Below are positions 5,290-44,121 of a stretch of DNA of 44,295 nucleotides, piece by piece. Positions within the stretch are counted from its first letter, which is position 1. Each line of letters begins with the position of its first letter. Source of the DNA: a virus. Lineage: Duplodnaviria > Caudoviricetes. Both the position numbers and the translations under genes were made by a program. The stretch covers positions 1 to 44,295 of the IMG/VR virus record IMGVR_UViG_3300025837_000005. One strand, 5' to 3'. Below the pieces are notes generated by a model that was given only the letters and a program-made list of their open reading frames with translations, made no database searches and was not told the origin of the DNA.

Positions 5290-5969
5290 TGAGAAAAACG
5301 AAAAAAAGAAAGCAAGCGGCGAGGCAGCCACGCGGCCAGGAACTGCCGGCTAATTTTGACCAGCAGGTCGAGCAAGTGACGGCGATGGCGATGTCCATCA
5401 TCTACGATGAGAAGAACGGCATCGTCGAAAGACAACTCCCAGATGCGTTACAGGATGCACAACAGATCGTTCAAGGAGAAGAGGATGTTATCCCTTCTGC
5501 TATTGCGAACGTTGCCTTGTGGGTATTGGCTACCGTTGAAGCGAACATTGAAAGCAAGGGCCATTCCGTCAGGCCGATTGTTGTTCTTGGGGCTATCGGC
5601 AGGATCGTTGCCGAGGTCTCGGAGGCTGCACAGGCAACCGGAACTGTCCAGATGAATAAAGAGGATATTCAGGTTGCGATAGCCGCTGCAATTAGTCTAT
5701 ATATCTCGCAGGCAAGGAAAGAGGGTAAGGTTACAAACCAACAGCTTATAGAGGCAATCAAGGCGCTCCAGAAAGCGTATCCGAAAGAAGCCGCCAATTT
5801 TCAACAGATGATACAGGCAAGGGCTCAGCGACAAGCCACTGGCCAGGGCAAAATCCTGGCTCAGCCCGGCATGAAAGGGTCGGTACAGCCGCTTGTTAAA
5901 CAAGGCATGGCAGGCCAAGCGCCCAAACCAGGATTACTTGGAGGCGCCAGGTCAACTACCGTCAGTTAA
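5289..5969 (+). CDS. Hypothetical virion-module protein; last 5 residues supplied by the inserted element
   Basis: Start overlaps upstream stop (TAATG); removing 5951-6297 restores GCC AGA TGA. Confidence 0.7.
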   Translation: MRKTKKRKQAARQPRGQELPANFDQQVEQVTAMAMSIIYDEKNGIVERQLPDALQDAQQIVQGEEDVIPSAIANVALWVLATVEANIESKGHSVRPIVVLGAIGRIVAEVSEAAQATGTVQMNKEDIQVAIAAAISLYISQARKEGKVTNQQLIEAIKALQKAYPKEAANFQQMIQARAQRQATGQGKILAQPGMKGSVQPLVKQGMAGQAPKPGLLGGARSTTVS

Positions 5970-6297
5970 AGCAGGCGGCTTGTAACTGCACTCCGCCGCA
6001 ATTTCCCATAAGGGGTTTTGGCATCATCGTGCGTTACGATACGGCTATTGACTGAGCCGCTACCTGGATAGCATATAGCGTCCAAGTAATTTTGCCGGAT
6101 ATTCCGGCCAGCATTAAGATCAGCATTAAGAGAGAAACCGCAATGTTTGCACTTGAAGACAGATTGAGATTGACGATTGGAATGGGAAATGTATCCATAA
6201 TATGCACATTGAATGCTTTTATCAAGAAAAATCTTTTAAGAAAGGAGGACGGCATTTCTCTCCCAGCTAAAGCAGGGAGTTTCCTGCCGTGTGATTT
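5951..6297 (-). mobile_element. Internally deleted IS200/IS605 derivative (PATE/MITE-like) with omegaRNA, tnpB 3' remnant and promoter
   Basis: Right end ...GGTAGTTGAC; left-end hairpin CTCCCTGCTTTAGCTGGGAG; 6060-6195 similar to tnpB 3' end; TTGATA-17-TATTAT at 6225-6197; followed by ATGA. Confidence 0.88.
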
Positions 6298-7296
6298 ATG
6301 AAAGCAGGTCTTTTAAGCGGAATCGGCCAGGGTTTGGGCAATATTGCGAATATGGCCCAGTGGTATTACGGAGAGAAGAAAGAGGCTGACCGGCAAGAAG
6401 AACTAAAAAAAATTCTGGTTGGAGAAAAGGCCCTCGGAGCAAAACAATATGAAGAAAAGATTATTGGATACACAAAGGACGGAAGACCAGTAACCCAAGG
6501 CATGTTGTCCGGCGGAGAGTATGAAGGAGCAATCTACGGACAGCAGATAAGGGATGACAACTCACAGGTGTATGTTGATAAAGACGGGAACGTTATCCCG
6601 GATATTTCTAAACATAAGGGGCCTGCGTTTAAGATTGGACCGTATATTCCAGGTTATAAAGAAAGGGAGTATGACAACTCACAGGTGTATGTTGATAAAG
6701 ACGGGAACGTTATCCCGGATATTTCTAAACACAAGGGACCTGCGTTTAAAATTGGACCGTATGGTTATGGGCAACAGATAAGGGAGCATAACAACTCACA
6801 GGTGTATGTTGATAAAAACGGGAACGTTATCCCGAATATTTCTAAACACAAGGGGCCTGCGTTTAAGATTGGACCGTATGGTTCAGGTGACGGTAGCGAT
6901 GGCGGCGGGGAGGTAGACCTTGTTAATATTAAACGATTTAATGATCTTGCCGCACAGATGCTCGGCGTCAAGAAGTTTTCGGTTGGGGCAAGAATAAAAG
7001 GCCGGCCGCCGGACGAGACGACCATAGACTTATTAAGCAAAATGGCTGGCGAACAGTTGGTCGTTAAGCCGGATAACGGCGGGTTGCTTGGAAAGAGGGG
7101 ATACACAATATTGCCAGCCTCGTCGGTTGGTGTGGGGAGCAGTGAGGTCAATTTTTTTGTCGGTGATGATCCGAATGCACCTCCGCTTATTTCTAAAGAA
7201 GAAAGAAACGAAAAACTGAAGACCAGAAGGGAAATTGAGAAAAAGATGACGTTTATGGAAAAGTTCAGGGCTAAAAACGCGAATTCTAATGAATAA
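6298..7296 (+). CDS. Putative internal virion protein with three internal repeats
   Basis: 3x (D/N)NSQVYVDK(D/N)GNVIP(D/N)ISKHKGPAFKIGPY; GLLSGIGQGLG N-terminus. Confidence 0.65.
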   Translation: MKAGLLSGIGQGLGNIANMAQWYYGEKKEADRQEELKKILVGEKALGAKQYEEKIIGYTKDGRPVTQGMLSGGEYEGAIYGQQIRDDNSQVYVDKDGNVIPDISKHKGPAFKIGPYIPGYKEREYDNSQVYVDKDGNVIPDISKHKGPAFKIGPYGYGQQIREHNNSQVYVDKNGNVIPNISKHKGPAFKIGPYGSGDGSDGGGEVDLVNIKRFNDLAAQMLGVKKFSVGARIKGRPPDETTIDLLSKMAGEQLVVKPDNGGLLGKRGYTILPASSVGVGSSEVNFFVGDDPNAPPLISKEERNEKLKTRREIEKKMTFMEKFRAKNANSNE

Positions 7297-7313
7297 TAAT
7301 AGAGAATGACTTA

Positions 7314-10300
7314 ATGGCTCTTTTAAAATATATCCGGGAGAAAAACGGCGGCCTCCCAAACATAGATTCTTTTGCTCTTGCCAAAGCGGTTTATGACGCG
7401 AATCCGAAGTATCAAACAATGTCGTTTGATAACTTTGCCAGCGCTGCTGGAATCGAAGAAGATATAGCAGCGACAAGAAGCGGTTTAAAGGATACTGCTG
7501 CTGCCGTTATTGAAAGCGTTCCTGTTGCGGGCATGGGTCTGCTGTCATCCGCTGTTGGCGCCATAAAGGGCGTCAGTAAAAATGCCGGGGTATATGCAGA
7601 AGACCTTACGATGGCAGAACGGCTTCAGTCTAAGTCTGATAAAATGACGGCGGAGTATCTTCAGAAGCATGGCATAAACACAGGTGATAAGTTTTTAGGA
7701 CTAACGCCTGCTGGGGTTGCACAGGCCATGTCAAACATGGGTTACACCGGCCTGGGCATGGTGTCCGGCGGTGCTGGCGGTGCTGCAGGGCTGGCTGCAA
7801 CCGGAGGGAACCCGGTTGGCGGTTATGTTGGCGCTGGTGTTGCTTCAGCCGGAGTGCTAACATCTGCCGCTAAAAACCAAATCATGCGCGCCTACCGGGA
7901 TGCCCTGAATGAGAAAAGGGAAGAAGCGGGTGAGCCTATTCTGTCAGATAAAGAATGGTTTGAAACAGCAGCGGCCTTCAATAAAGAAGCCAATAAACAC
8001 GCCCTCTGGGAGTCCGGCCTCGAGACAGCCGGGGAGCTTCTCGAGTTTGGCGCTATTACCGCCCCGCTCAAAAAAATAGTTGGAAAAGAAATAGCCGAGC
8101 GGATGGCTAAAAACTGGATAGGGAAGACCGCAAATGTTGGCGTCCGGAGCGCGGCTGCAAGTGGATCAGAGCTTGCGACAGAAGCGGTCACACTTCTCAA
8201 ACAAGCGCCGATTGAAAAAAAAGCTGGTCTTAGAGAAGACGTACCTGAAAATTTTCTCGAAGCCGTTAAAGAGGTTTACCCGGTTGTCATGCCGATGGCG
8301 ATTATAGCTGGCGGCGGGGCGAAGTTGGGTCATGTCGCATATAAAAAAGCGTCTGAAAGAATAAAAGAGGCCAAAGAGAAGCGGGCTAACACCGCAGTGG
8401 AGCAGGCAAAAAAACTGGCGGAAAGCCTTATCGGGAAAGAACCCTCTGATACCGGACTGAGAGACCGGGATTTAGCTATTATCGCAGAAGAGATACTGAA
8501 CGATATTGAAACAGGGCTTTATGACAATCCGGCGGTAGCCAACGACTTGGCCGGTGAGGTTGAAAGAACCCCGGGGCTTTTGGATGCCATTGAAAAAGCA
8601 AAGAATGTGCGGGTTGGCGTGATCCCTACCCCCGCCACGCCCAGTCCGTCTTTATCTGAAACCAATCTCGGGCCCGACTTTAAGAATGCCCCGGTAAACC
8701 GGTCCGCTCTCGACGCTGAGGATTCAGAGAAAAACAGGATTCGGCAGGTTTATGCCCTGAAACAGCAAATTGCTGCCGTAAAGCAACAAGCTCCCGGGGA
8801 AACACAAACTCCGTTCCGGGCCCGGGTTATCAAAAAGCTTGAGGCAGACCTGGAGGCCCTTGGCCCGGTTAATCTTTCGGCAGAAGCTGCAAAGCGGAAC
8901 CAGGTTGTTCTCTCCGGCATGAAGCCTGAGATCGCCGGTTTTAATGTGCCGAAGACAAAAGAGGACGTTTTGGCAGAGCAGGCTTTAGCAGGGGCCGAAG
9001 AGACCGCTTGGGCCGACGAGCAGAAGACGATACAGAAACAACGCAACGATCAACAAGTCATTTCCTTAAGGAAGAGGCTTGCGGATCTCAAAAAGCAGAA
9101 ACAGACCAAGCCTGTAAAGAAACAGATAAAAGAGACGGAAGATCGTCTGGGCTCGCTGAAGCCCGCGGATATAATTCGCCAAAAAGCAAGGGAAAACCAA
9201 GCCCGAATTGATGCCGGGCTGTTCCCAGAAGAATTCCCGGAGCCTCGGACATTTGAGAATGCCCCGGTAAACCGGCTGGCCGGGAAAGCGAAGACTTTGG
9301 CCGATATGTCGGCAAGCCTCCAGACGACCGAAACAAGGGGTGTGGCGACCGATAAAGAAGGAAATCGATATTCTTTCGGTGCATCGTCTCCAAGATGGTT
9401 TACAAAACTGAACGAAAAGACGAAGTCTGTAGGGCAGGAGTTTTTTTCCAGGAAAGAAATTGACGTACTCGCAAGGAAATACGTCTCCAGGGCGAAGCTG
9501 ACGGCGAAACAACGTCAGCGCATGTTTCTTCTTGATCAGGCGGTCACCGATTTTGAGAACGAAACTGGTAAAGAGAAAAAAGGAACAGTAACCCCTTCTC
9601 CTGAGACGCCCCAAACAATCTCCAGCGAACCACTGGCTGCACCACAGTCTGACGTAACCAACACCCTTACCCCAACCGATAACAAATTGTTACCAGTTGC
9701 AGAAGCCAAATCAGTCCCCGCCGAAGTTCTGAAAGACTACCCGGACCTTGCGGCAAAAACAAAGCCGGCAGCATGGGAATCAAGTGAGCTTGTCCAAAGT
9801 CCGAACATCCAGATAGACAGAACCGAGGCAAAGAAGCAGGCCGATGGATCGTTTAGGCTGTTCTTCCGTGGCACTCGCAATGAGGTTTTTGCCGGGCAGA
9901 CGTTCGGGTCCGCATCCGAGGCCCGTCAATTTTTTAAAGTCCAGCAGGCAAAAGCGCAGCAGGATGCCGCTTCCAGCAGAAAAGAACCTGACGACAGCCC
10001 GAAATTCAGCCTGACTGAAGACAAATCTCTTTATATCACACACAATATCACCGAAGACAAGCTGCGCCATGCGCTAGATCTTGGTGGATTGGCAATGCCA
10101 TCCTCCGCCGTGTCTAGTATTAAAAACGAAGCAATGGTGAAATTTGGGGATATTTCTCTTCTCGCGCACCCTAATTTTTTACAGTCTGGTAAAGTGCGTG
10201 TGTTTGACGCCGATATTTATTCTCCGCGCTACCCGGCAGCCAAATATGATATTAACGAAAAAGCCATTACCGATTTTAATAAATGGATAGATGGGGACTG

Positions 10301-13300
10301 GAACCCATTCGTGTCGACACAAAACAAGTGGTCCGGCCATCTTGATGGTTCTGACATACAGGGCCATGGCCTAGACGCCATTTTAAATAAAAATTCTGTA
10401 AAGTATGCATGGCTTCGGGATAATGGTATTGCTCCCAAAATAACCAAGAACACGGAATCGCCGTATAAATCATTGAGCCAGGCTTTCAGGTCTCATAAAA
10501 CAGAAAACGCCTTCCGTACTTTCGTAAGGGAAAAGTTTAAAACACTCGTTACCGGGCGCAAGATTTTAAAAGGAGTTACCTCTTTAGGCAACCGGAGGTA
10601 CATACCGTATACTCTTGATAATATTATAAAACAAATGCGGTCGGGCGCATTGCGTAGTGGAGAAGCTTCTTTTTACGGCGTCGGCAGCATCCGAGCGTCA
10701 CATGCAAAAGAATACAAAAGCCTCGGGAGCATCAAAAAAGACAAGGACCGGCTAGTTAACTCTGAACAAATGAACAAAATTAAAAATGACCTACAAAACC
10801 AACTGTCAGATCTTCTTGAATCGTTGAAACCGTTTTATAAATTTGAATCAACGTCGTTTGGTTATTATGATGACGCAGGTCGCGCATTAGCTGAAGGGCG
10901 CCATGGTATAAACGAAACCTTTAAAGAGTTGCCGAAAGAGGCGCTTGATAAGATTGACGCTTTTTTAAAATCTTTAAAAGAGGCGCCGACTGAATATTTT
11001 GAAGCGAAGGCTCAAAGGATTGTCGGTTTTAACGAATTTCACACGGCAGTTGTGCCAAAAAACACATCGCCGGACGTTGTTGCCGCACTAAAAAAACACG
11101 GTCTAGCCATCAACTATTACAAGAACGGCGACAATGCCGACAGGCAGCGAGCTATACGGAAAGCCGATAAGGTGTTGTTCCAGAAGACCACTTCTCTAGG
11201 CAGCGGCTTTCCCATTGCCGAAGTTAAGGCCATTGTTTTGCCACTTTTGAACAAGCTGACCGCTGGACCAAAGGCTCACTTCGTTCAGTCAGAAGCGGAG
11301 CTTCCCCCCAGGATTATAGACATCATCCAGCGAAAAAACGCATCCGGGCAGATTGTCGCCGTTAATGATCGTGGTGACATCTATTTCGTGGCAGACAATA
11401 TCCGTTCGACCGAAGATGCAGAGTCTGCATTCCTCCACGAGGTGTTCGGGCACTACGGTGTTGAGGCGATTCTCGGCAAGGAAAAAGCCAAGCGGTTTTT
11501 CACCAGCGTCTGGATGAGCAAGCTCAATGACCCGGAGTTCATGAAAATCGCCACTACCTACGATTCAGACCTGTCCACGGTTGCTGGCAAGGTGGAAGCG
11601 GCCCGCGAATATGTGGCAAAGCTGGCAGAATCCGGAGTAGACAACTCACTAATTACGAAATTGATCGGCATGATCCGGGGCGCCCTGCGGAAGTTGGGCG
11701 TGAAAATGAAGATCAGCAACAACGATATCCGCCAACTAATTGCCCTGGGCGCCCGGCAGATGAAGGGGGTGCGGTCTAAACTGCTCGTTGCCGAAAAAAC
11801 TGTTAATTTTCAGATTGCTGAAATGGTGAAGCATGTGCTCGGCATTAAGTTAGACCCGGCACAACCATCCGACGATGTTTTTTTTATGCGGACCCCCGCT
11901 CCTACTCCCGCCCCGATGATTGACAATTTCAAGGCGCTGAAGAAAGCGTTCGGCGAAACGACAGCCAGGGTGATTCGGGGTAAGATGCCGATTGCTTATG
12001 ATCACAGTGAAGAATTGATTGCTTTTCTTCAAAAGAAAGTGCCCGTCAAGTCGCATCTCCCCTACATCATCACAAATATGGGGATGGAGTTAGAGGTAGA
12101 GTTTTTATCCGAGAAGATGATCATTGTAGCGCCTGTCAAAGAAAAACTTACGCTGTCCGCTAAGGAGTTAGCCGAAAAAGCAGGATATAGGCTGACGGAG
12201 ACGAAAACTCGAAAAGATGTTCTTTCGTTTCGGTCAGATTACTCAAGAAACAGTGTAATATGTACGTACAATGACATAGAAGGCCGGTTGCGTGACCGTT
12301 TTATATTCTGGTTGCGCCGGTATAATGCTGATGTAACGCCGAGGGCCGAAGAGTTAACACAAGATAATCTTACCCCGGAATGGAAAAAATATCTGGAAAA
12401 AAGGGGTTGGTTAAAAGATGACGGGACGTATGCCCTGTCTGGGCTAAAGAGAGAACGGGAAGATCCTTATGGTACGTCGTCAATGTGTGTGCAAATCTGG
12501 CGTAAAAACGATAAATCAAAGGGGTCATTATGGATTCTCAACAGATATAATCATACCCTTCAGGACGGGAAAAATCCCGATGTTACATATAATAGAAAGC
12601 TAAACAAAATTATAGATGGTCTTGAGGACGCCATTTATGATTATGTAAAGATAAAAAAACCCGCAACGACCACGGACACGCCCGTCCTCTCCCCCGGCAT
12701 AGTCGAAGACGCGCAAGGGAGCCTATATCACTATGCCCGTGAGCGGAATGGCGTATATTGGGGCGACGGTTTTATTATGAGTGGTGGAGCGGCTACGATT
12801 GTCAACCCGGGCATTGAACGAGTGGTGGAGGGGTTTGTTCTGCGGGCTGACGGGATTGTAAATGGGGTTGGCTTATTCGCCAACTACGAGAACAGCATTT
12901 TTAGCCTTATCGGCAAGACCCGCTTTGGCAAAAAAGGGTTGATTGAGTGCACTACAAAAGACAACAAAAAGTTTTCTTTTTTTGTGCAAAATGGGCAGAT
13001 AATAAGATTCGATACCGGCGATCTTACTGAAATCAGCGGCTACTCCCTGTGCGACAACGCCGCCCTGACTTCAATTGCCCTGCCGAACGTGACTACCATT
13101 GGCGCCTTCTCCCTGAGTTACAACTCCGCCCTGACTTCAATTGCCTTACCGAACGTTGAAACCATTGGTAATAGCTCCCTGCGTGACAACGCCGCCCTGG
13201 CTTCAATTGAACTGCCGAACGTTAAAATCATTGACAACTACTCCCTGAGCGGCAATGCCGCCCTGACTTCAATTGAACTGCCGAACGTGACCGCCATTGG

Positions 13301-16300
13301 CAACTACTCCCTGCGTGACAACGCCGCCCTGGCTTCAATTGCCTTACCGAACGTTGAAACCATTGGTAACAACTCCCTGAGCAACAACCCCGCCCTGGCT
13401 TCAATTGAACTGCCGAACGTTAAAATCATTGACAACTACTCCCTGAGCGGCAACGCCGCCTTGGCTTCAATTGCCTTACCGAACGTGACCACCATTGGCA
13501 ACTACTCCCTGAGCAACAACGACTCTCTGACTTCAATTGCCTTACCGAATGTGACCACCATTGGCAACTACTCCCTGCGCGGCAATGCCGCCCTGACTTC
13601 AATTGCCTTACCGAACGTGATCACTATTGGCAACCACTCCCTGCGCAGCAATGCCGCCCTGACTTCAATTGCCTTACCGAACGTGATCACTATTGGCAAC
13701 CACTCCCTGTGCAACAATGCCGCCCTGGCTTTAATTGAACTGCCGAACGTGACCACCATTGGCGACCTCTCCCTGATCGACAATGCCGCCCTGGCTTCAA
13801 TTGCCTTACCGAACGTTGAAACCATTGGTAACGATTCCCTGAACAACAACCCCGCCCTGGCTTCAATTGAACTGCCGAACGTGACCACCATTGGCAACTA
13901 CTCCCTGAGCGACAACGCTGCCTTGGCTTCAATTGAACTGCCGAACGTTAAAATCATTAGCAGCTACTCCCTGTGCAACAATGCCGCCCTGGCTTCAATT
14001 GAACTGCCGAACGTTAAAATCATTAGCAGCTACTCCCTGTGCAACAATGCCGCCCTGACTTCAATTGCCTTACCGAACGTGATCACTATTGACAATTACT
14101 CCCTGCGCGACAACGCCGCCCTGGCTTCAATTGCCTTGCCGAATGTGACCACTATTAGCAACAGCTCCCTGAGCAGCAACCCCGCCCTGACTTCAATTAC
14201 CCTGCCGAACGTTGAAACCATTGGTAAAAACTCCCTGCGCAACAACGCCGCCCTGGCTTCAATTGCCTTGCCGAATGTGACCACCATTGGCAACTTCTCC
14301 CTGAGCGACAACGCTGCCCTGGCTTCAATTGAACTGCCGAACGTGACCACCATTAGCGACTACTCCCTGAGCAACAACGCTGCCCTGAAGAATATTATTT
14401 TACCTTTCGGGAAGAAAATTGTCCGCAACAACAAGACGTTTACGGGTGTGAGAGCCGAAGATCAGGATAAGCCGCTGTTTCAAACCGTAAAGGCAGGCGT
14501 CTCAAATTTTTCCGGCGTTACCACAAAACAGATACGGTCTTTTTTTAAAGGCCTTGATTCCGGCCGGTCGCCGGATGGTAAGGTCTGGGTTCGGATCGGC
14601 AAGCGAATCGTAATCGTGGAACAGGTGGAGGGGTTGATCAACAAGAGACAGTTTGTGGCCACCCTGTCCATCCGGGATCCCGGCAAAGCGTTCGGTGCAT
14701 ACAAGAACAAAACCATTTATTTATCTTCCCTGGGTGATAAATATACGCTGGCCCATGAGGGCATCCATCTTCTGGATGACATCGGTCTGATAAATAGGCT
14801 GGAGCAGACAGTTATTGAAAAGGCGGCCGGTGTTGAGCGTGGGGCCTCTGTCGGTGACCGAGCTGAAGCAAGGGCTGAATATCTTACCGCCTTATTGGAG
14901 GCCCGCGAGAAAACCCGCAATACGGTCCTGGGCCGAATCGTGCAAAAGGTGCGGGATTTTATTGACGGCCTGCGGGCGCTGTTTGGGGCGACGGTCGGGC
15001 AGGTGGCCAAGGGTATTGAGACCGGGCAGGCGTTCCAGAGAGAGGCCGGTAAGGGTGAGAGTGGGGCTGGCAAGATCATCCCCCTGCTCGAGCGGTTCAA
15101 CGACCAGAGCGATGATATCCGGTTCCAAACAGTAGGCCCTGCCGATGCCCTTGGCACAGCCGATACAATCGACAAAAAAGCCGCTGAGAAAACCAGAAAG
15201 GCCGTCGATGCAATTATAGCCGACATTAAAAAAACCACAAAGAAAAATACTATCACGGTCTCTGAGACAAAGGCCCGGAAGCTGGCCAGTGATTACGTTT
15301 TTCTTAAGACTATGATGAAAGACAACAGCGTTGACTTAGAGCAAAAAATAAAAGAATACAAGGCTTTCCTTATGAAGTTGCCCCCCGGCGTCAGAGCGAA
15401 AGCGCTGGCCGGTATGCCGAAAATAGTCACGGCAAAAACCAAAAAGACGCGGCAAAAATATTTTGACCAGGTTATCGTTCAAGCGCAAAAGTTTCTCTCC
15501 GAAGAGGTTAAAAAAGAACTCCGCCGAGACATCCATAAACTGCGTCGCAAACCGCGCACGGCCAAAGGCGGAAAGGTAAAAAAGAACGTCCTCTCCCAGC
15601 TTGAAAAACTAAACAAAACCGTTTTTGGTAAAACCCCGATAAATACAATGCCGGCGGCTGAGTTTCATATCAACGCCTTATCAAAACAGCGGGAGACGCT
15701 AGAGGAAAACGTTCCTGATTCGGACAACAAGATTGCTACAAACAAGTGGTTTTCAGATATCGAAGACATTGACCAGAAGATTGCTCTGATAAATACCTTC
15801 GGTGGCATAAAGGAAATGTCCGAAGCGCAGCTTGTCAATGCTTATGAAGAGTTACAGAGGATAATCGCTGAAGGCCGGACAAAATGGCAGGTAAGTGAGG
15901 CCATACGGAAACAAAAAATGGAGGAAATCCGGGGACGCCTTGACCGTGAGATTACTGGCGAAAAAGCCCCGAAGCCGGAAACCATTGGTCAAAGAAACCA
16001 GAGAATCCGTGACCAACAAAAAGCGTGGAACCGGATCGCCGACAAACTATCTCAATTCGATACCATACATCAAAGCTGGCGGTTCTTGATGGACAAACTG
16101 GCCAGAAAGTCCGGGAAGGGTACGCTGAAGTCCGACGCGGTTGAGATTATCGGTGGGGCAGCTCATTACGCAACAAACGAAGAAAACGCGCTCAACGGTG
16201 CGGCGATTGCTATGATAACGAAAAAAGTGAAGGATTTGATCGGCGGAACGGGGCACAAAGTCAAGAGATGGGTTGATAACCAATCAAATAAAGAGGATCT

Positions 16301-18053
16301 GTATATACTAACGTATGAAAATGGAAAGAACGAACAAATCAAATTGACCCCGATGACGGCGGCATATTGGTGGGCAGTAAAACAACGGGGCGACGCTCTC
16401 GCCGAAGATGGTATGGCAATGGTCAATACGACGTTCCAGAAAATGGGTGCAGACGCAGCTTTTTTCGGGCAGATTAAGAAAACGATTGATCCCGCGGTGA
16501 TTGAGTTATCCAGGTGGCTGTCAGAGACCCTGGGAGAGCACATCTACCAGACCGTTTCGCCTGTTTACAAACAGCGGTTTGGCGCCGTCCTTGATCACGG
16601 TCGAGCATATACCCCGATTCAGCGACAAATTTTTCGTAAAGAGAGGGATGTTAATTTGCTTCAGCAGTACCAGGAAACGCCGTCGATTATTAAAGGAGCA
16701 CTTCACACGCTGACGCACTCAACCAAGTCCATTCGGGAAACCAACCTGCTAAAAGTTTGGATGGATCATATATATGACATGAACCATTTCGCGGCTTGGT
16801 CGATTCCAATACAGATGATGCAGAGTGTTTTCGGCAACCCGATCACTAAGGGATATATTGAGCGGATTCACGGAACCAACATGAATTTCGCCATAGACGA
16901 GTTTATAAAGAAATTTACTGCCGGTCGCCGTAAGCTCAAGGATGTGTTTAATGTTTTAAATCTCGATTCCTGGCGGGGCCGGTTCAGCTCGGCCGTCATT
17001 GGCGCGAACCCTGTTATTTACATCAAACAGCTTACTTCCATCCCGGCAATGGCGGCGGATATCCCGACGAACGATTTTATCGCCGGGTTTGCCGACTTCC
17101 TGAATCCGACAACCGGCAGCCCTTTGGAAAAAATGCGGATTCTCGGAAAATCTCAGTTCGTTAAAATGAGATATGAAAAAGGCCATACCCGGGACGTGGC
17201 CATTGCCAGCAGGAAGACCCTTGGGCAGACAATCGGGCAGCAACACAACTGGCCAACGAAACTGATGTTTCTGGCACGCCTGGGCGACATGCAGGCCATT
17301 TATGCCGGAGGGTGGGCCGTCTATAAGTATCACCTTGAAGCCGGTCTTAAAAACGGCTTGGGTGAGCCTGAAGCGAAAAAACGGGCGATTATTAAATTTG
17401 AGGAGGTCGCAAGAGATACCCAACAGTCTGGAGAAATTATGGACCTGGGCCTTGTCCAACAGGGAGGCGACTTTTCAAAGCTGATGACCATGTTCTTCAC
17501 TGCCCCGGCCAGTTATTATCGGGAGATATCCGCCGCCATCAGAAATATGCCTGCCAACCCTGGTAATTCCGCAAAAAGATTGTTTCTCTTCTGGGTGATT
17601 GTCCCGGCAATGTTCGAGGCAATAGCCTCCCTTCCGCTGGTATTCGATGATGACGATGACGATTTTACTCTTTTCTGGAAACGAATGTTCCGATCTGTTG
17701 TTCTCGGGCCTACAAATGGGCTTTTTCTTGTCAGAGACATCGCAGAGACGCTGTATAACATTCTGTTTCTAAAGAACGATTCCGGATGGGGCGACGCTCA
17801 ATATTCTCCGGTCGGCAGCGTATCGGATACAACAAACAGGATTGCTAAGGATCTCCGGGAAATAGTCGAAGGCGACGACGATGATTTTGAGAAGCTGTTA
17901 AAAGACGCCGTCGATATCGCTGGTTATGTGTCGGGTTACCCGCTACCGGCCGCAAGCAACTTGATCGAAAACTGGGTGGATGTCGCTGCCGGGGACACGG
18001 AGCATCCTATGGCGCGGTCTATCGGTTATAGACAATGGGCTACCGGGGATTAG
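7314..18053 (+). CDS. Giant polyvalent (probably injected virion) protein with two zincin-like HExxH motifs and a BspA-type LRR array
   Basis: 3579 aa; HEVFGHYG and HEGIH motifs; about 21 x 22-aa LPNVTTIGNYSL repeats; last gene of the ejection-protein block. Confidence 0.8.
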   Translation: MALLKYIREKNGGLPNIDSFALAKAVYDANPKYQTMSFDNFASAAGIEEDIAATRSGLKDTAAAVIESVPVAGMGLLSSAVGAIKGVSKNAGVYAEDLTMAERLQSKSDKMTAEYLQKHGINTGDKFLGLTPAGVAQAMSNMGYTGLGMVSGGAGGAAGLAATGGNPVGGYVGAGVASAGVLTSAAKNQIMRAYRDALNEKREEAGEPILSDKEWFETAAAFNKEANKHALWESGLETAGELLEFGAITAPLKKIVGKEIAERMAKNWIGKTANVGVRSAAASGSELATEAVTLLKQAPIEKKAGLREDVPENFLEAVKEVYPVVMPMAIIAGGGAKLGHVAYKKASERIKEAKEKRANTAVEQAKKLAESLIGKEPSDTGLRDRDLAIIAEEILNDIETGLYDNPAVANDLAGEVERTPGLLDAIEKAKNVRVGVIPTPATPSPSLSETNLGPDFKNAPVNRSALDAEDSEKNRIRQVYALKQQIAAVKQQAPGETQTPFRARVIKKLEADLEALGPVNLSAEAAKRNQVVLSGMKPEIAGFNVPKTKEDVLAEQALAGAEETAWADEQKTIQKQRNDQQVISLRKRLADLKKQKQTKPVKKQIKETEDRLGSLKPADIIRQKARENQARIDAGLFPEEFPEPRTFENAPVNRLAGKAKTLADMSASLQTTETRGVATDKEGNRYSFGASSPRWFTKLNEKTKSVGQEFFSRKEIDVLARKYVSRAKLTAKQRQRMFLLDQAVTDFENETGKEKKGTVTPSPETPQTISSEPLAAPQSDVTNTLTPTDNKLLPVAEAKSVPAEVLKDYPDLAAKTKPAAWESSELVQSPNIQIDRTEAKKQADGSFRLFFRGTRNEVFAGQTFGSASEARQFFKVQQAKAQQDAASSRKEPDDSPKFSLTEDKSLYITHNITEDKLRHALDLGGLAMPSSAVSSIKNEAMVKFGDISLLAHPNFLQSGKVRVFDADIYSPRYPAAKYDINEKAITDFNKWIDGDWNPFVSTQNKWSGHLDGSDIQGHGLDAILNKNSVKYAWLRDNGIAPKITKNTESPYKSLSQAFRSHKTENAFRTFVREKFKTLVTGRKILKGVTSLGNRRYIPYTLDNIIKQMRSGALRSGEASFYGVGSIRASHAKEYKSLGSIKKDKDRLVNSEQMNKIKNDLQNQLSDLLESLKPFYKFESTSFGYYDDAGRALAEGRHGINETFKELPKEALDKIDAFLKSLKEAPTEYFEAKAQRIVGFNEFHTAVVPKNTSPDVVAALKKHGLAINYYKNGDNADRQRAIRKADKVLFQKTTSLGSGFPIAEVKAIVLPLLNKLTAGPKAHFVQSEAELPPRIIDIIQRKNASGQIVAVNDRGDIYFVADNIRSTEDAESAFLHEVFGHYGVEAILGKEKAKRFFTSVWMSKLNDPEFMKIATTYDSDLSTVAGKVEAAREYVAKLAESGVDNSLITKLIGMIRGALRKLGVKMKISNNDIRQLIALGARQMKGVRSKLLVAEKTVNFQIAEMVKHVLGIKLDPAQPSDDVFFMRTPAPTPAPMIDNFKALKKAFGETTARVIRGKMPIAYDHSEELIAFLQKKVPVKSHLPYIITNMGMELEVEFLSEKMIIVAPVKEKLTLSAKELAEKAGYRLTETKTRKDVLSFRSDYSRNSVICTYNDIEGRLRDRFIFWLRRYNADVTPRAEELTQDNLTPEWKKYLEKRGWLKDDGTYALSGLKREREDPYGTSSMCVQIWRKNDKSKGSLWILNRYNHTLQDGKNPDVTYNRKLNKIIDGLEDAIYDYVKIKKPATTTDTPVLSPGIVEDAQGSLYHYARERNGVYWGDGFIMSGGAATIVNPGIERVVEGFVLRADGIVNGVGLFANYENSIFSLIGKTRFGKKGLIECTTKDNKKFSFFVQNGQIIRFDTGDLTEISGYSLCDNAALTSIALPNVTTIGAFSLSYNSALTSIALPNVETIGNSSLRDNAALASIELPNVKIIDNYSLSGNAALTSIELPNVTAIGNYSLRDNAALASIALPNVETIGNNSLSNNPALASIELPNVKIIDNYSLSGNAALASIALPNVTTIGNYSLSNNDSLTSIALPNVTTIGNYSLRGNAALTSIALPNVITIGNHSLRSNAALTSIALPNVITIGNHSLCNNAALALIELPNVTTIGDLSLIDNAALASIALPNVETIGNDSLNNNPALASIELPNVTTIGNYSLSDNAALASIELPNVKIISSYSLCNNAALASIELPNVKIISSYSLCNNAALTSIALPNVITIDNYSLRDNAALASIALPNVTTISNSSLSSNPALTSITLPNVETIGKNSLRNNAALASIALPNVTTIGNFSLSDNAALASIELPNVTTISDYSLSNNAALKNIILPFGKKIVRNNKTFTGVRAEDQDKPLFQTVKAGVSNFSGVTTKQIRSFFKGLDSGRSPDGKVWVRIGKRIVIVEQVEGLINKRQFVATLSIRDPGKAFGAYKNKTIYLSSLGDKYTLAHEGIHLLDDIGLINRLEQTVIEKAAGVERGASVGDRAEARAEYLTALLEAREKTRNTVLGRIVQKVRDFIDGLRALFGATVGQVAKGIETGQAFQREAGKGESGAGKIIPLLERFNDQSDDIRFQTVGPADALGTADTIDKKAAEKTRKAVDAIIADIKKTTKKNTITVSETKARKLASDYVFLKTMMKDNSVDLEQKIKEYKAFLMKLPPGVRAKALAGMPKIVTAKTKKTRQKYFDQVIVQAQKFLSEEVKKELRRDIHKLRRKPRTAKGGKVKKNVLSQLEKLNKTVFGKTPINTMPAAEFHINALSKQRETLEENVPDSDNKIATNKWFSDIEDIDQKIALINTFGGIKEMSEAQLVNAYEELQRIIAEGRTKWQVSEAIRKQKMEEIRGRLDREITGEKAPKPETIGQRNQRIRDQQKAWNRIADKLSQFDTIHQSWRFLMDKLARKSGKGTLKSDAVEIIGGAAHYATNEENALNGAAIAMITKKVKDLIGGTGHKVKRWVDNQSNKEDLYILTYENGKNEQIKLTPMTAAYWWAVKQRGDALAEDGMAMVNTTFQKMGADAAFFGQIKKTIDPAVIELSRWLSETLGEHIYQTVSPVYKQRFGAVLDHGRAYTPIQRQIFRKERDVNLLQQYQETPSIIKGALHTLTHSTKSIRETNLLKVWMDHIYDMNHFAAWSIPIQMMQSVFGNPITKGYIERIHGTNMNFAIDEFIKKFTAGRRKLKDVFNVLNLDSWRGRFSSAVIGANPVIYIKQLTSIPAMAADIPTNDFIAGFADFLNPTTGSPLEKMRILGKSQFVKMRYEKGHTRDVAIASRKTLGQTIGQQHNWPTKLMFLARLGDMQAIYAGGWAVYKYHLEAGLKNGLGEPEAKKRAIIKFEEVARDTQQSGEIMDLGLVQQGGDFSKLMTMFFTAPASYYREISAAIRNMPANPGNSAKRLFLFWVIVPAMFEAIASLPLVFDDDDDDFTLFWKRMFRSVVLGPTNGLFLVRDIAETLYNILFLKNDSGWGDAQYSPVGSVSDTTNRIAKDLREIVEGDDDDFEKLLKDAVDIAGYVSGYPLPAASNLIENWVDVAAGDTEHPMARSIGYRQWATGD
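13020..14400 (+). repeat. About 21 tandem 66-nt repeats encoding BspA-like leucine-rich repeats
   Basis: Unit GCCCTG(A/G)CTTCAATTG..(C/T)T.CCGAACGT......ATTNNCNNCNNCTCCCTGNNCNNCAAC. Confidence 0.92.
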
Positions 18054-20706: not shown

Positions 20707-20763
20707 TTTGAACTCCTCACTTAGTTGTTTTGATTAAAAATCTTCTATAACTTGGTTTGTCTA

Positions 20764-20844
20764 CCAAAATTTTATGCACGTCTCCCAAAATTTTATGCAC
20801 GTCTCCCAAAATTTTATGCACGTCTCCCAAAATTTTATGCACGT
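20764..20844 (+). repeat. About 4 tandem copies of 21-nt CCAAAATTTTATGCACGTCTC
   Basis: Direct reading; unit derives from yqaJ sequence near 21476-21497. Confidence 0.9.
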
Positions 20845-20886
20845 TTTCAAACTTAAGAGATTTAGCCCGTCTCTGCGAACCGATAT

Positions 20887-21008
20887 GTCAATTACTAATC
20901 GGCTATAAGCCGATAGCTTGCAAGTAAGTCGGCTGAAGCCGACTCCCTGCGATAGGTTTATTGACTAAAACCCTACCTGGATAGCATGTAGCGTCCAAGT
21001 AATTTTGC
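20887..21008 (-). ncRNA. Orphan TnpB omegaRNA scaffold; predicted guide ATATCGGTTCGCAGAGACGG
   Basis: 122-nt block differing from 361-482 at about 3 positions, ending in ...TAATTGAC. Confidence 0.8.
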
Positions 21009-21034
21009 TATACAGAGCAGTAATATCCGCCACA

Positions 21035-22078: not shown

Positions 22079-22783
22079 TTATTTGCCAGATACCATCTCT
22101 CTAAATTTGGCAGCTTGAGCGGCCTGTATGGTTTTCCGTGCGGCATCTTCTGCGACCCATGTGGCGGCCTTTGTGTCTCTTGTGGTTTTCCGTGCAGCCC
22201 ATGCGGCGACCCATGTGGCGATTCCTGTGGCGATCCCTACGACGTTCTTTGCGACATTCTTTGCGACGACCCCTGCGGCCACTAGGGCGGCCCTTTCGGC
22301 CAGTGTGGCGGCCTTTTCGGCCAGTGCGGCTTCCCGTGCGATATCTCCTGCGATGCATGCGTCCTCTGTGGCGACCCCTGTGGCAATCCCTGCGACGGCC
22401 CTTGCGGCGGCCCCTGCGGCGGCCCTTGCGGCACCCCATGCGTCCTCTGCGGCGTCCTTTGCGGCGGATAGTTCTTTATCGGTGGCCTGTCCGTTAGCGT
22501 ATCTCTCAGCTACACCGAGAGCATTTAAACTTCGTTGATCTGTCATCAGGTATTGCCCTTGCCGTGCGCACCACACAGCATACAGTCGCCATACCCGATT
22601 ATACTCTGGTGCAGCATAGCAGCACCAGAGAGCATCCTCCAAGCCATTGCTGTCGAGGATGACGCTAAAAGGCAACGATTCATCATCTAACATGGTTTTG
22701 CCAAGATATTTTAATAGTTTTTTCCATCCTCTGGAACCTATATTGCACATTTGAATTTTGTTTAGCGTTGTTGTCAATTGCAT
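22079..22783 (-). CDS. Ala-rich phage protein, tandem paralogue 3
   Basis: MQLTTTLNKI...ILDSNGLEDALWC...AERYANGQAT; variable Ala-rich tail. Confidence 0.85.
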   Translation of the reverse strand: MQLTTTLNKIQMCNIGSRGWKKLLKYLGKTMLDDESLPFSVILDSNGLEDALWCCYAAPEYNRVWRLYAVWCARQGQYLMTDQRSLNALGVAERYANGQATDKELSAAKDAAEDAWGAARAAAGAAARAVAGIATGVATEDACIAGDIAREAALAEKAATLAERAALVAAGVVAKNVAKNVVGIATGIATWVAAWAARKTTRDTKAATWVAEDAARKTIQAAQAAKFREMVSGK

Positions 22784-22849
22784 TTCTCTCTCCTTTTTGT
22801 TTTCCCGGATGCGCCGGGTCGGTTGCTTTTTCCTGCGGCATAAATCATA

Positions 22850-26192: not shown

Positions 26193-26209
26193 AAGGGGAA
26201 AATTGTTTT

Positions 26210-28750: not shown

Positions 28751-29776
28751 ATGGCTAAATTAAAAGCACCGTTCCCATATTTTGGAGGAAAATTAAGAAT
28801 GGCCTCTCTAATTTGGAAAGCACTTGGGAATCCAAAACATTACATCGAGCCTTTTTTCGGGTCTGGCGCTGTGCTTCTTGCGCGGGAAAGATTTAATCCG
28901 GCAGAAACAATAGAGACGATATGTGATAAAGATGGATTTTTGGCGAACGTTTGGCGGTCTTTACAGCAATGTCCGGATGAAGTCGCGAAATGGTGCGACT
29001 GGCCCGTGAATCATGTCGATTTGAACGCTCGGCGGCGGCGGTTGCTTGCCGAAGAACCAGCCCTTTTAAAAAATCTTGCAGAAAATGACGAATATTGTAA
29101 TCCGAAGCTGGCTGGATATTGGGTTTGGGCGGCGTCCTGCTGGATCGGTTCGGGCTTGACGCGTTTAAACGCGATACCCTCTATCAGCGACAGCGGGATG
29201 GGGGTGCACGCCATTGGGCAGATCCCCCACATCAGCAGCAGCGGGATGGGGGTGCACGCCATTGGGCATATCCCCCACATCAGCGACAGCGGGATGGGGG
29301 TACACGACCCGTACAATACCAATATTTATAAATTATTCAGGCAATTATCAGAGCGGTTACGGTATGCCCGGGTAGTGTGCGGCGACTGGACTCGTGTTTG
29401 TGGTGGCAAATGGCAAGACAAAGCTGGTGATGTCGGTATTTTTTTTGATCCGCCATACGGGGTTAAGGATAGGGATTTGTTTTTATATCGTCACGATTCA
29501 TCAACCATCGCTGCCGATGTTATGGCCTGGTGTAAGGAGCGCGGTAACATTCCATCATATCGCATTGTCCTGGCAGGCTATGAAGAATATCAAGAGTTGA
29601 TTGAAAATTACGGTTGGAAGGCTCAAGTATGGCAATCAAATGGCGGATATGCCAACACGAGCACCAATAAAACCCGTGGAGACGATAATAAAAAGCGGGA
29701 ATGTCTGTATTTTTCACCGTATTGTATGAAGCAATTACAACAGGGGGAGCTTTTTAAGTCAACTACCGCCAGCTAA
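28751..29776 (+). CDS. DNA adenine methyltransferase (Dam/D12-like)
   Basis: PYFGGK, EPFFGSGAV, DPPY; three internal 15-aa repeats. Confidence 0.88.
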   Translation: MAKLKAPFPYFGGKLRMASLIWKALGNPKHYIEPFFGSGAVLLARERFNPAETIETICDKDGFLANVWRSLQQCPDEVAKWCDWPVNHVDLNARRRRLLAEEPALLKNLAENDEYCNPKLAGYWVWAASCWIGSGLTRLNAIPSISDSGMGVHAIGQIPHISSSGMGVHAIGHIPHISDSGMGVHDPYNTNIYKLFRQLSERLRYARVVCGDWTRVCGGKWQDKAGDVGIFFDPPYGVKDRDLFLYRHDSSTIAADVMAWCKERGNIPSYRIVLAGYEEYQELIENYGWKAQVWQSNGGYANTSTNKTRGDDNKKRECLYFSPYCMKQLQQGELFKSTTAS

Positions 29777-30001
29777 AGCAGGCGGCTTGTAACTGCACTC
29801 CGCCGCAATTCCTCATAAGGGGCTTTGGCATCATCGTGCGCTACGATACGGCTATTGACTGAGCCGCTACCTGGATAGCATATAGCGTCCAAGTATTTAT
29901 ATAATATGCACATTAAATGCTTTTGTCAAGAAAAATCTTTTAAAAAAGAAGGACGGCATTCCTCTCCCAGCTAAAGCAGGGAGTTTCCTGCCGTGTGATT
30001 T
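29758..30001 (-). mobile_element. Minimal IS200/IS605 derivative: left end, promoter and omegaRNA only
   Basis: Near-identical to both ends of 5951-6297; TTGACA-17-TATTAT (29929-29901) abuts the scaffold; followed by ATGA. Confidence 0.88.
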
Positions 30002-30107: not shown

Positions 30108-30209
30108 ATGACACTTCATGACACTTGAAGGGCATTTTCATATTAGCCCCAGAAAAAAGCCCTAAGGGCATTTTAATGAAAATGCCCTTCAAGTGTCATG
30201 AAGTGTCAT
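30108..30209. repeat. Perfect 34-bp inverted repeat followed by an AT-rich tract; candidate replication origin
   Basis: ATGACACTTCATGACACTTGAAGGGCATTTTCAT (30108-30141) and its reverse complement (30176-30209). Confidence 0.8.
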
Positions 30210-40723: not shown

Positions 40724-41977
40724 ATGGGACAATTATGGTCAGTTAATACTCTCGGGGGCTATATGTACTCCGACAATCTAAGCGCTGAGCTGCGGACCGC
40801 GGTTCAGCCGGGTCTGAGATTCCGTTAAGATAGGCGGAATTAAAACTTTGCTATATGCGGGAACGAACTGAGTATATATCACTACCAAAGTGTAAAAATG
40901 TGATATTGCAGTCAATCCGCAGGGAAGTCAAATATGGTATTTTGACCCCCCAACGACTACACGCAGAGCAAACTCAGTATTTGAGTTTGATGATATAGTC
41001 TGGACTTACGGGCGACCGTAAGAGGGATTACGAAAAGAAACCCCGCCTCAGTAGAGGTCAGTAGGCTTTAGCCTGTCCGCCGGATGACAGGCGGGGCCGA
41101 AAGCAACAGATTGCAGTTTTGCGATGTCAAAGACCCTGAGCAGAGCAAGCGGCACAAGGGTGCTATATTTCACTGGAACGTTTATTCGGACGTTGAGACG
41201 CAGGGTAAAAACCTGGCGGAAACCAGCGTTATGCCTGAAACGCAGTTCACCATCACTCCAGGGACTCTTACCATTACGGAATATGGGAACTCCGTACCTT
41301 ACACCGGGATACTCGATGAGCTTTCTGAACATCCCGTGAAAGAGCTGATTCACAAGGTTTTGAAGAACGACTGTAAAAAGGCTCTTGACACCGCTGCACA
41401 CGATCAGTTTAAGCAGACTCCGTTACGAGTTGTACCGGCGGACAACGGTGCCAGTCTTGACTCCCTTGTCATGACTGAGAACGGCGCTACTACCATAACG
41501 AACAACGTTGCGATGGGGAAGAATCACATTAAGGTGATTATCGACACCATGAAAGAGCGGAATATTCCGCCCTACATGGAAGAGGATTACTACGCCATCG
41601 CCCGGCCGTCCACTTACAGAACGTTTAAGAACGACTTGGAGACTATCAAGCAGTACGTTGAGACCGGGTTCGGCCAGATTCTCCGTGGGGAGATTGGCCG
41701 ATACGAAGGCTGTCGGTTCGTTGAACAGACGAATATCTTGGCTGGGATCGGATCCACAGCGGATGCGCCTTGGACAAACGCCATGTCTGACTGGGCATTT
41801 TTCATGGGCGAGGACACCGTAGCAGAGGCTGTCGCGGTTCCCGAGGAAATTCGTGGAAAATTGCCCGGCGATTTTGGGCGAGACAAGGGCATCGCATGGT
41901 ACGCGCTTTTGGGATACGGTCTGGTTCATACTGACGCAACTCAGGCTCGCATTATCATGTGGGATTCTGCTGCATAA
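40724..41977 (+). CDS. Major capsid protein (N4-gp56-like), spliced: join(40724..40825,41114..41977), 321 aa
   Basis: Exon 1 MGQLWSVNTLGGYMYSDNLS...LRFR joins in frame to QFCDVKD...; TITEYGNSV, GEIGRYEG, DFGRDKGIAWY; AGGAGG RBS. Confidence 0.88.
40826..41113 (+). ncRNA. Group I intron without ORF (288 nt)
   Basis: Exon-terminal U in P1 (TTCCGT/GCGGAA with G-U pair); ATGCGGGAA and AATCCGCAG core; R CGACTACACG and S GATATAGTC forming P7; terminal G; removal restores frame. Confidence 0.88.
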
Positions 41978-42000
41978 TACAATGAAAGGAGATATAACTT

Positions 42001-42769: not shown

Positions 42770-42958
42770 GTGGCCTACTTTTCTGCTAAGCCTCCGGTGC
42801 CGGACGCCAAAAAAATGCACGACCCGGAATTCACCAAACAGGATATTAAAAAGGGTTTTTCGGTTTCCCCTATGTATGGGAAAACCGGTGAGCCTTCCAA
42901 TATACTAACTGTTCGAAACCGAGAGTGGCGCAAGGAAGTGGAGAATGCTTTCGGGTAA
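42770..42958 (+). CDS. Small hypothetical protein
   Basis: AGGAGG RBS, GTG start; current stop supplied by the inserted element. Confidence 0.65.
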   Translation: MAYFSAKPPVPDAKKMHDPEFTKQDIKKGFSVSPMYGKTGEPSNILTVRNREWRKEVENAFG

Positions 42959-43079
42959 ACTACCGTCAGCTAAAGCAGGCGGCTTGTAACTAACAGATAG
43001 AAACTGTTGCTACGATAGTCTATTCGTTAAGCAAAATCTTTTATAAAAGGAGGATGAGCAATTTCTCGCTCAATTTATT
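42955..43079 (-). mobile_element. Highly eroded IS200/IS605 derivative (same family as 5951 and 29758)
   Basis: GTAAACTACCGTCAGCTAAAGCAGGCGGCTTGTAACT right end; AAAATCTTTTA..AAAGGAGGA..GCA.TT remnant; ends at ATGA. Confidence 0.75.
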
Positions 43080-43244
43080 ATGAAACTAGACAAAAAAAGA
43101 CCGTTTGGAGAGATTTTGGGTAAGTCTCCCAAGCCAGGCGCAAAGTTTGAACAGGATGGAAACTATTTTAATAGCGTTGGGGATTTAGTCGGGCCAGAGA
43201 AGCCCGCGGTTAACCCGGAGACGTCCAGGCGTCCTCGAAAGTGA
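43080..43244 (+). CDS. Small phage protein (54 aa, MKLDKKRPFGEILG...KFEQDGNYFN...)
   Basis: Hand translation; flanked on both sides by IS derivatives at its start and stop. Confidence 0.65.
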   Translation: MKLDKKRPFGEILGKSPKPGAKFEQDGNYFNSVGDLVGPEKPAVNPETSRRPRK

Positions 43245-43437
43245 ACGCTCCCCTGAATAAATTCAGGGGCTTCTCAGTTCAACGAGGGGCATTACAACGC
43301 CGCCTCTCCCTGAGCGTTTAGATGGTTTGGACGGTTCTCGCCCTACCATATTTAGTTGTCCAATTATCGCATTCTTTTCCGGTAAATCTTGAGGTAAGCC
43401 GGCCGAACGCGACAACTCTGGTTCCATGCGGGGTGAA
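43241..43437 (-). mobile_element. IS200/IS605 derivative of a second family carrying a TnpB-type omegaRNA scaffold
   Basis: Minus strand GTAGGGCGAGAACCGTCC...AACGCTCAGGGAGA...CTCGTTGAACTGAGAAGCCCCTGAATTTATTCAGGGGAGCGTTCAC; followed by ATGA at 43438. Confidence 0.78.
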
Positions 43438-44121
43438 ATGAGCACATATCTTCAATTATGCCAGAAGATTACAAGAGACCTTGGCGTTGGAACGTCGATC
43501 TCGACAGTATCAGATCAGATAGGGATGTCGCGCAAGTTCGTGGACTGGATTGCGGACGCTGATGAATATGTTCAGTCCCTTTATTTTGACTGGAACTTCT
43601 TGTGGAGCCAGTACAGTACTACAACGGTGGTTGGCACACGTGAATATAGCGCCCCTTCAGATCTCGGTGTGTGGGATAAAGATTCGTTTTATCTCGATTA
43701 TCTTTCTGATGGTTATATTAAGTTGAGCGAAATTCCGTACCTGACATGGCGTCAGGCATTTCTGCCAGGGTCTCACACAAACTCCAAATCTTCATCTTTT
43801 CTTTTAGCCCCAAACCATAACGTGTATTTAGAGCCGATTCCAGACGCAGCCTATATGTTGACCGCTGATTATTGGAAGTCGGGAACCAGAATGACGACCA
43901 ATGTTGATACGTCGGATATTCCTGCCAGGTTCGAGCGGATCATAATCGCCCGGGCAAAGATTTACTACGCCGAACACGAAGAGTTGCCGAACGTGTTTGA
44001 ACTCGCAACCAATGAATTTGACAGTCTTTTAAAGCAACTGGAAGCAGCCGAACTTCCTGGGAGGGAAGAGTACGGTCGCGGTCATGCTCACGACTCTGAC
44101 ATGGTTATAAGGACTGAATAG
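43438..44121 (+). CDS. Head-tail adaptor / tail tubular protein A-like
   Basis: MSTYLQLCQ...WIADA...WNFLW...LEPIPD; position after the head genes. Confidence 0.75.
   Translation: MSTYLQLCQKITRDLGVGTSISTVSDQIGMSRKFVDWIADADEYVQSLYFDWNFLWSQYSTTTVVGTREYSAPSDLGVWDKDSFYLDYLSDGYIKLSEIPYLTWRQAFLPGSHTNSKSSSFLLAPNHNVYLEPIPDAAYMLTADYWKSGTRMTTNVDTSDIPARFERIIIARAKIYYAEHEELPNVFELATNEFDSLLKQLEAAELPGREEYGRGHAHDSDMVIRTE

Follow-up and report, generated by a model that had tools for sequence, protein, structure and literature searches.

The transposons closest to those described here are the IS605B (IS1341-type) elements with an N|ATGA target, for example IS605B-1_MA and IS605B-1_HM (Kapitonov, Makarova and Koonin 2016, PMC4810608). 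They carry only tnpB, have subterminal hairpins, insert directly before ATGA without target duplication and with tnpB antisense to that reading, and give rise to short non-coding derivatives (PATEs). The elements studied here share these traits. They were found in the IMG/VR virus record IMGVR_UViG_3300025837_000005, which was analysed over its whole length of 44,295 nt (the window) and is estimated to be 83% complete. The available passages of the IS605B paper make no connection between ATGA and the starts or stops of genes ('stop codon' gives no hits in its main text), and they report neither an enrichment at gene junctions nor an open reverse frame.

The ISGst elements of Geobacillus (Meers 2023, 10.1101/2023.03.14.532601) are also similar. 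In the preprint text available, the transposon-adjacent motif (TAM) and the transposon-encoded motif are paired with guides and covary with them, the TAM equals the transposase target, and PATE-like non-autonomous copies occur. TTCAT is the TAM of the IscB of ISGst5; that element encodes IscB, whereas the phage elements carry tnpB. The same text reports an orientation bias of iscB with the upstream gene, ascribed to guide-RNA transcription, and none for tnpB overall, whereas TCAT tnpB elements of the phage type are oriented against their host genes. An NTGA TAM is given in the available part of the IsrB paper (PMC9581776). In IStrons, which combine IS605 or IS607 elements with a group I intron (10.1101/2023.11.20.567912, available in part), the TnpB element likely lowers its cost to the host gene, as we propose here. 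IStrons splice out of the mRNA, whereas the phage elements have no intron and would instead be crossed by translation, along an open reverse frame at gene starts. A literature search, with most subscription papers and supplements outside its coverage, found nothing on junction enrichment or on an open antisense frame over tnpB, and the accessible part of an Arc preprint (10.64898/2026.09.24.754181) held no relevant passage. The element family and its ATGA target are already known, so that what is new here is the niche and the open frame.

We observed the TCAT target of these elements, their ends, empty alleles for two of them (E1 and E2), an enrichment at gene starts and at stop/start overlaps, and a specific loss from tnpB of the three codons that read as stops on the opposite strand. 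To judge from the sequences, they are probably non-autonomous IS200/IS605 elements with a TCAT target that sit backwards at starts and overlaps and persist through the purging of in-gene copies and through a stop-free reverse frame that ribosomes could cross. In a wider form, TCAT-target IS605 elements may well be translationally transparent transposons, a reading towards which we lean with some reserve. Their reverse strand, which is free of stops in several TnpB clades and in many cases carries a ribosome-binding site pointing outward, would form a ribosome bridge over 1.3 kb to a rebuilt stop/start overlap and let them colonise essential operons.

Family, ends and target

The window virus was classified as an SU10-like tailed phage, because it encodes a terminase, an SU10-type portal and adaptor, a capsid protein, a primase, a YqaJ exonuclease, a single-stranded DNA-binding protein and an endolysin. 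All 24 listed sequencing runs with the whole record or a piece of it are metagenomes from groundwater or aquifers, and no RNA run is among them. Element ends were called by self-comparison and by folding of the ends under a hairpin and guide rule. The features are:

361..1629, minus strand: E1, full tnpB-only IS200/IS605 element of 1269 nt with both ends intact, no tnpA, start-only site (hairpin and guide rule; empty allele; relative at 95% in locus L005).
377..1531, minus strand: tnpB, 384 aa, RuvC D/E/D motifs and zinc finger (Pfam PF01385 and PF07282; translation).
530..1633, plus strand: antisense open reading frame (ORF) of 367 codons, open from 506, in the tnpB codon register, with the TGA of the target ATGA as its stop (ORF list; no Pfam family).
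1532..1560, minus strand: putative near-consensus sigma-70 promoter for tnpB, 11 of 12 matches (consensus match only; related sequence retained in E2 and E3).
1581..1629, minus strand: left end of E1, with hairpin 1581-1596, guide GAAA 1599-1602 and a 27-nt spacer.
1630..1633, plus strand: ATGA targeted by E1, with which a host ORF of 36 codons begins.
5951..6297, minus strand: E2, internal-deletion derivative with both ends intact, at the ATGA overlap between genes 5289-5969 and 6298-7296.
29758..30001, minus strand: E3, shorter derivative of the E2 lineage, between a DNA methyltransferase gene and a 27-codon ORF.
42955..43079, minus strand: E4, relic of 125 nt from a third lineage that has lost its left-end hairpin.
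43241..43437, minus strand: E5, relic of 197 nt whose right end (guide GAAG, end TCAC) is unlike the others; it precedes the head-tail adaptor gene.
20887..21008, minus strand: E6, relic of a right end from the E1 lineage, situated in a duplicated 3' part of the YqaJ exonuclease gene; its left end is deleted and its target unreadable.

The traits of tnpB-only (IS1341-type) IS200/IS605 elements were found here. The tnpB gene encodes the RuvC and zinc-finger domains. Subterminal hairpins stand in place of terminal inverted repeats, no inverted-repeat pair lies at the element ends, and the left hairpins were lost in E4, E5 and E6. Insertion is 3' of a fixed target without duplication, as the empty alleles of E1 and E2 and the TCAT survey indicate. 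At each intact end the hairpin is accompanied by a four-base guide that fits the cleavage site (GAnA with TCAT). Such pairing of guide and cleavage site is the scheme of IS608, and it is supported by E6 and E1, which differ by matching single bases in guide and end (CAAG/TGAC in E6, CAAA/TGAT in E1). No match to the Y1 transposase family PF01797 was found in the 83% complete record, and no Rfam match at the right end of the element, where the predicted guide RNA would lie. The elements contain no group I intron, the only such match in the window being in the capsid gene; the protein is TnpB, and there was no match to HEARO, the RNA upstream of the iscB gene (with its HNH domain) in ISC/IscB elements with an ATGA target. 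We classify the elements as tnpB-only IS200/IS605, not as IStrons and not as ISC, with E1 as the one full element and E2 to E5 as four deletion relics, all non-autonomous.

The target was surveyed in three scans with left-end hairpin patterns free of TCAT, which gave 172 distinct ends, 168 of them with sufficient upstream DNA. TCAT stood 11-20 nt before the guide at 151 of the 168, and the next most common tetramers merely overlap it. TCAT is the target of the family, as a preliminary description of this DNA had proposed. If the published rule that the TAM equals the transposase target applies, it would also be the TAM of the 384-aa TnpB.

That description had placed the ends of five minus-strand elements directly before ATGA at 1630, 6298, 30002, 43080 and 43438 (TCAT on the element strand), and all five positions stand, those of E1 and E2 by empty alleles and that of E5 with an uncertain boundary. 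Empty alleles were sought in contigs from four public runs aligned to window positions 1-8000, which cover E1 and E2 and not E3 to E5. In run X7, 362 is joined to 1630, which fixes the left end of E1 and puts its right end no more than 2 nt from 361, the predicted position. In run X13, 5950 is joined to 6298, so the E2 boundaries are exact. The left-end spacer of E1 is unusually long (12-19 nt elsewhere), which had raised the possibility of an end 13 nt earlier at a TCCT site; this was ruled out by the empty allele joining at 1630. An outward Shine-Dalgarno sequence AGGAG (1617-1621) lies in this spacer, 8 nt before the host ATG, and the E1 relative in L005 has AGGAGG at its left end in front of a different gene. 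The site of E1 is start-only, the upstream gene ending at 319, 41 nt before the element.

The relics fall into several lineages. E2 and E3, whose ends are intact, are deletion derivatives of a sister lineage to E1; both ends of E3 are 95% identical to those of E2 and the flanks are different. E4 matches the right end of locus L009 at 78%, and its guide GAAA lies 14 nt from TCAT despite the lost hairpin. Its right end has changed from TGAC to TTAC, which gives an immediate stop and mismatches its own guide CAAG; such a change would fit a repair that followed insertion. A left-end hairpin is absent from E5, whose left boundary may be TCAT or TCAC. Its right end is shared with a tnpB element in locus L381, a search for its full-length parent found none, and in a related phage (L028) the corresponding gene junction is an ATGA overlap. 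At least three lineages occupy the niche in the window phage, which accords with the earlier claim of two or more families.

The YqaJ exonuclease gene carries a tandem duplication of about 400 nt at its 3' end (20692-21500) with 21-nt repeats, and E6 lies in the second copy. The duplication may record the rescue of a gene hit by insertion.

Insertion at gene starts and stop/start overlaps

Excision of E2 to E5 gives the upstream gene an in-frame TGA that overlaps the next ATG, and with the start-only E1 this agrees with the preliminary description, which had four of five elements restoring an overlap. The pre-insertion phage genome holds 320 ATGA on both strands. By a hand-made gene list that includes a few wrong starts, the occupied fractions are 4/6 for candidate overlaps, 1/9 for plain starts, 0/49 for intergenic and 0/255 for in-gene ATGA (overlap versus intergenic, nominal P=4e-5; overlap versus start, P=0.09). 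The two free candidate overlaps precede ORFs of only 11 and 18 codons.

We then rebuilt empty sites for all fetched elements whose two ends could be located and whose flanks extended for 300 nt in both directions. A first pass took 160 left ends to 76 with a right end and 68 usable, and the addition of metagenome loci brought the set to 83 sites; 16 loci that were copies of the window phage were excluded. Sites and background ATGAs were classed alike by a small gene finder of our own, to which small genes and some starts are invisible. The 83 sites comprise 18 overlaps, 29 starts, 4 stops, 27 intergenic and 5 in-gene sites, and the 1657 background ATGAs comprise 16, 82, 24, 299 and 1236 of these, respectively. 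Overlaps thus make up 18/83 of the sites versus 1% of the background, and starts 29/83 versus 5%. The enrichment of collected insertions at ATGA overlaps that the preliminary description expected was found, with an odds ratio (OR) of 28 against all background ATGAs. Against intergenic ATGAs the OR was 12.5 for overlaps, 3.9 for starts and 1.8 for stops (P=0.29, not significant). At the target ATG begin 65 ORFs of at least 40 codons, of which 28 match Pfam, mostly with the beginning of the profile intact; two of these 28 sit at sites that the gene finder classed as in-gene. An outward Shine-Dalgarno-like motif was found at 32 of the 83 left ends, versus 9% of intergenic ATGAs.

The idea of a safe harbour between coupled genes stood in part. 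Overlaps are enriched, but they exceed plain starts by an OR of only 3.2 (P=0.006), and this loses significance within ATGAA sites alone. Because plain starts outnumber overlaps and the overlap preference is modest, the niche comprises gene starts of any kind, with overlaps somewhat favoured, and not only coupled junctions.

Pure survivor bias would combine a 4-nt target with purifying selection, the open reverse frame having an unrelated cause such as codon preference. The scarcity of in-gene insertions (5/83 versus 75% expected) agrees with it, and so does E6, whose position in a redundant coding piece suggests that the transposase can hit coding DNA. Intergenic ATGAs should be at least as harmless as starts, however, and the 4-fold excess at starts and 12-fold excess at overlaps over them speak against this explanation, which we consider unlikely.

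The enrichment over intergenic ATGAs could instead reflect active targeting, with TnpA, or the single-stranded DNA that it needs, preferring TCAT at translation starts or coupled junctions during insertion. The four of six candidate overlaps filled in the window phage fit this, and a bias at the fifth base of the sites (ATGAA at 48/83, ATGAT at 1/83) indicates recognition beyond four bases. That bias cannot explain the enrichment, which persists at starts and overlaps when sites are matched for the fifth base, and it was rejected as the cause of the start preference. There is no enrichment at stop-only sites, the DNA around E6 derives from a coding gene, and we know of no mechanism by which a Y1 transposase could sense translation. 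Active targeting is a distinctly improbable account.

A homing bias would let junction elements persist because their conserved coding flanks allow TnpB cutting and repair to copy them efficiently between related genomes. The sampled runs contain E1 and E2 as both filled and empty alleles, tnpB is intact, overlaps are more enriched than plain starts, and TnpB-driven maintenance has been published (Meers 2023 preprint, 10.1101/2023.03.14.532601, seen in its available text). Homing leaves the stop-free reverse frame unexplained and is compatible with the explanation preferred here; as the cause in its own right it is very improbable. Whether the start preference arises at insertion, by homing or by retention is not discriminated by sequence data alone.

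Each element was also described as supplying a replacement stop within 0-5 codons. The count holds: the stops lie 5, 5, 0 and 0 codons into E2, E3, E4 and E5, and 81 of the 83 elements have a stop within six codons in the frame of an overlapping upstream gene. The stop arises from the end sequences, since TCAA, TTAC, TTAA and TCAC ends, when read backwards, place it at bases 2-4, and TGAC ends have it in the hairpin loop. As an adaptation to the ATGA target it was rejected, because elements with other targets share the geometry. The same in-frame stop was found in all eight elements with TTAA, TCAA or TTAT targets (seven with a readable right end) and in five of six without an assigned target; among the right ends read from non-TCAT elements it lies 5 codons in for 12 of 13 and 8 codons in for the remaining one. 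The replacement stop is best read as a by-product of end sequences common to the family. That it is not target-specific also fits survivor bias.

Several single-hairpin mini-elements were seen beside the longer ones. Those of 47-51 nt with a TCAT target occur in loci L033, L037, L080, L032, L076, L062 and L068, and three of 47 nt have a reverse frame that is stop-free from first to last base and a Shine-Dalgarno motif. The window itself has a 53-nt IS200/IS605 mini-element after TTTAA (2693-2745, plus strand), intergenic and on the strand opposite to E1-E6. Its empty allele was found in three of four runs, and its two guides, left and right, seem to overlap at the foot of one hairpin.

The stop-free reverse frame over tnpB

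The preliminary description had missed two things: the relic E6 and the stop-free antisense frame ending on ATGA, which is the best sign of adaptation. For the 367-codon reverse ORF to be open, tnpB must avoid TTA, CTA and TCA. The window tnpB has none of them in its first 334 codons, versus 11.3 expected from host codon usage (P 3e-6). Over E1 the other two plus-strand frames hold 21 and 36 stops, versus 2 in the frame that shares the tnpB register, and this frame has the fewest stops in all five elements E1-E5 (2, 1, 3, 1 and 1). In E2 it is open for 81 codons, through the deletion joint to the ATGA. In E3 the last 39 codons are open, with no start codon among them.

The same loss was observed in other elements. 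We collected 60 distinct tnpBs, of which 33 could be assigned a TCAT target, 8 another target and 1 TCAC, and 18 had no target call; four of five genomes searched for control tnpBs yielded none. Counted over 250 codons per gene, the 33 TCAT-target tnpBs have 9 antisense-stop codons versus 209 expected, with none in 30 of 33. The eight other-target controls have 29 versus 64.5 expected, and none of the eight is free of them. Below 56% GC, 11 of 14 TCAT tnpBs have zero antisense stops, versus 0 of 8 controls. The underuse in the controls would suit survivor bias with a codon preference. Against this, only the three antisense-stop codons were lost, and only in frame: other A-ending codons are freely used in tnpB (AGA 1.75, GGA 1.31, CCA 1.63, ATA 0.5), and TTA, CTA and TCA trimers are common in its other frames. 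On these grounds we rejected the idea that rare codons, A-ending codons or the three trimers as such are avoided throughout. Furthermore, the target TGA is in register with tnpB in 26 of 33 TCAT elements although their leader lengths vary. A stricter form of the bridge, running through the whole element from its first base (length = 2 mod 3), was rejected, as element lengths fall 32/30/21 over the three classes.

In the tree, the open-frame trait spans several deep TnpB clades with stop-bearing lineages between them, some long branches being unsure. The length of the frame (367 codons with an ATG) and its retention across distant lineages might suggest an overprinted gene with a functional protein. 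We found no Pfam match for the antisense ORF 530..1633, and the deletion relics retain only the end of the frame. At 82-85% protein identity the fourfold-site difference is about 0.6, near saturation, and the antisense amino-acid identity (0.55) is no higher than in closed-frame controls (0.60). For these last two reasons the openness of the frame, and not an antisense protein, is what is conserved. A protein function was rejected, and an overprinted gene is hardly credible.

Some observations weigh against the proposed account. Of the 83 sites, 27 were classed as intergenic by a gene finder that misses small genes, and E1, the only intact element in the window, is not at an overlap. E5 could end at a TCAC/GTGA target (43433-43436), which would leave stop and start 1 nt apart without an overlap. 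The ATG at 530 lacks a clear ribosome-binding motif. Only 29 of 66 long elements keep the frame open, up to the target, for more than 80% of their length, and in many others it breaks or shifts within the left end. One TCAT element (L311) has seven antisense stops, and two elements with a likely TTAC (L381) or possibly TCAC target (L223) have none, so the trait, as read from these sequences, is not strictly tied to ATGA. The controls are few (eight), six of them belong to a single clade, and their own counts fall below expectation. The P values given here are nominal, since related elements do not count as independent.

In L381, read on the reversed locus at 1317-2454, the tnpB element with the likely TTAC target lies just before a host ribosome-binding site and is stop-free in its reverse frame at 37% GC. 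The open-frame trait may extend beyond TCAT.

Taken together, we propose the following course for the non-autonomous TCAT elements. A host TnpA would insert the element in trans at TCAT, with the DNA guide GAnA setting the target. Copies inside genes would be purged by selection, E6 being a survivor in a redundant gene piece, while insertion at an ATGA start or overlap would leave both proteins nearly intact. The mRNA of the host operon would run through the 1.3 kb antisense element and its reverse frame would be translated, and ribosomes on the open frame would shield the mRNA from Rho-type premature termination. They would re-initiate at the rebuilt ATGA overlap and restore coupling, helped in some lineages by the outward Shine-Dalgarno sequence. 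TnpB with its guide RNA would cut empty alleles and so maintain filled ones by homing. The frame is likely to act as a ribosome runway that removes polarity, in the manner of an IStron without splicing.

Other features of the genome and significance of the reverse frame

The major capsid gene is split by a group I intron at 40826-41113 on the plus strand (Rfam RF00028, match 40782-41022, 70.8 bits). Its exons rejoin in frame as FR|QF, and no homing-nuclease ORF lies within the intron. Just past the ORF downstream of E3 there is a perfect 34-nt inverted repeat with a 34-nt spacer (30108-30209), possibly an origin or packaging signal. Three tandem paralogous genes (22079-24187, minus strand) encode proteins of 211-234 aa with alanine-rich repeats at a period of 702-771 nt, and the two that were tested had no Pfam match. 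A 3579-aa protein (7314-18053, plus strand) has a PBECR5 nuclease-like domain and BspA-type leucine-rich repeats, and is likely to be an ejected virion protein. Between the endolysin and primase genes lie two 84% identical copies of a 245-nt non-coding stretch (25601-25843 and 25958-26200). The 280-aa protein at 1744-2586 (plus strand) is built of 132-nt repeats and matches PHROG 27227, to which that database assigns no function.

It is the stop-free reverse frame, not the target motif, that gives these results their main value. If the proposed role of the frame is true, it would explain how nuclease-carrying transposons, five in this window, can accumulate in a densely packed phage genome, within operons for head and tail that are essential, without killing the phage. 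It would also be a codon-level constraint on tnpB that serves host translation instead of the enzyme, and, next to the splicing of IStrons, a second way for such elements to be harmless. A long ORF antisense to tnpB should then not be taken for a protein gene, and the arrangement would offer a design idea for non-polar insertions.

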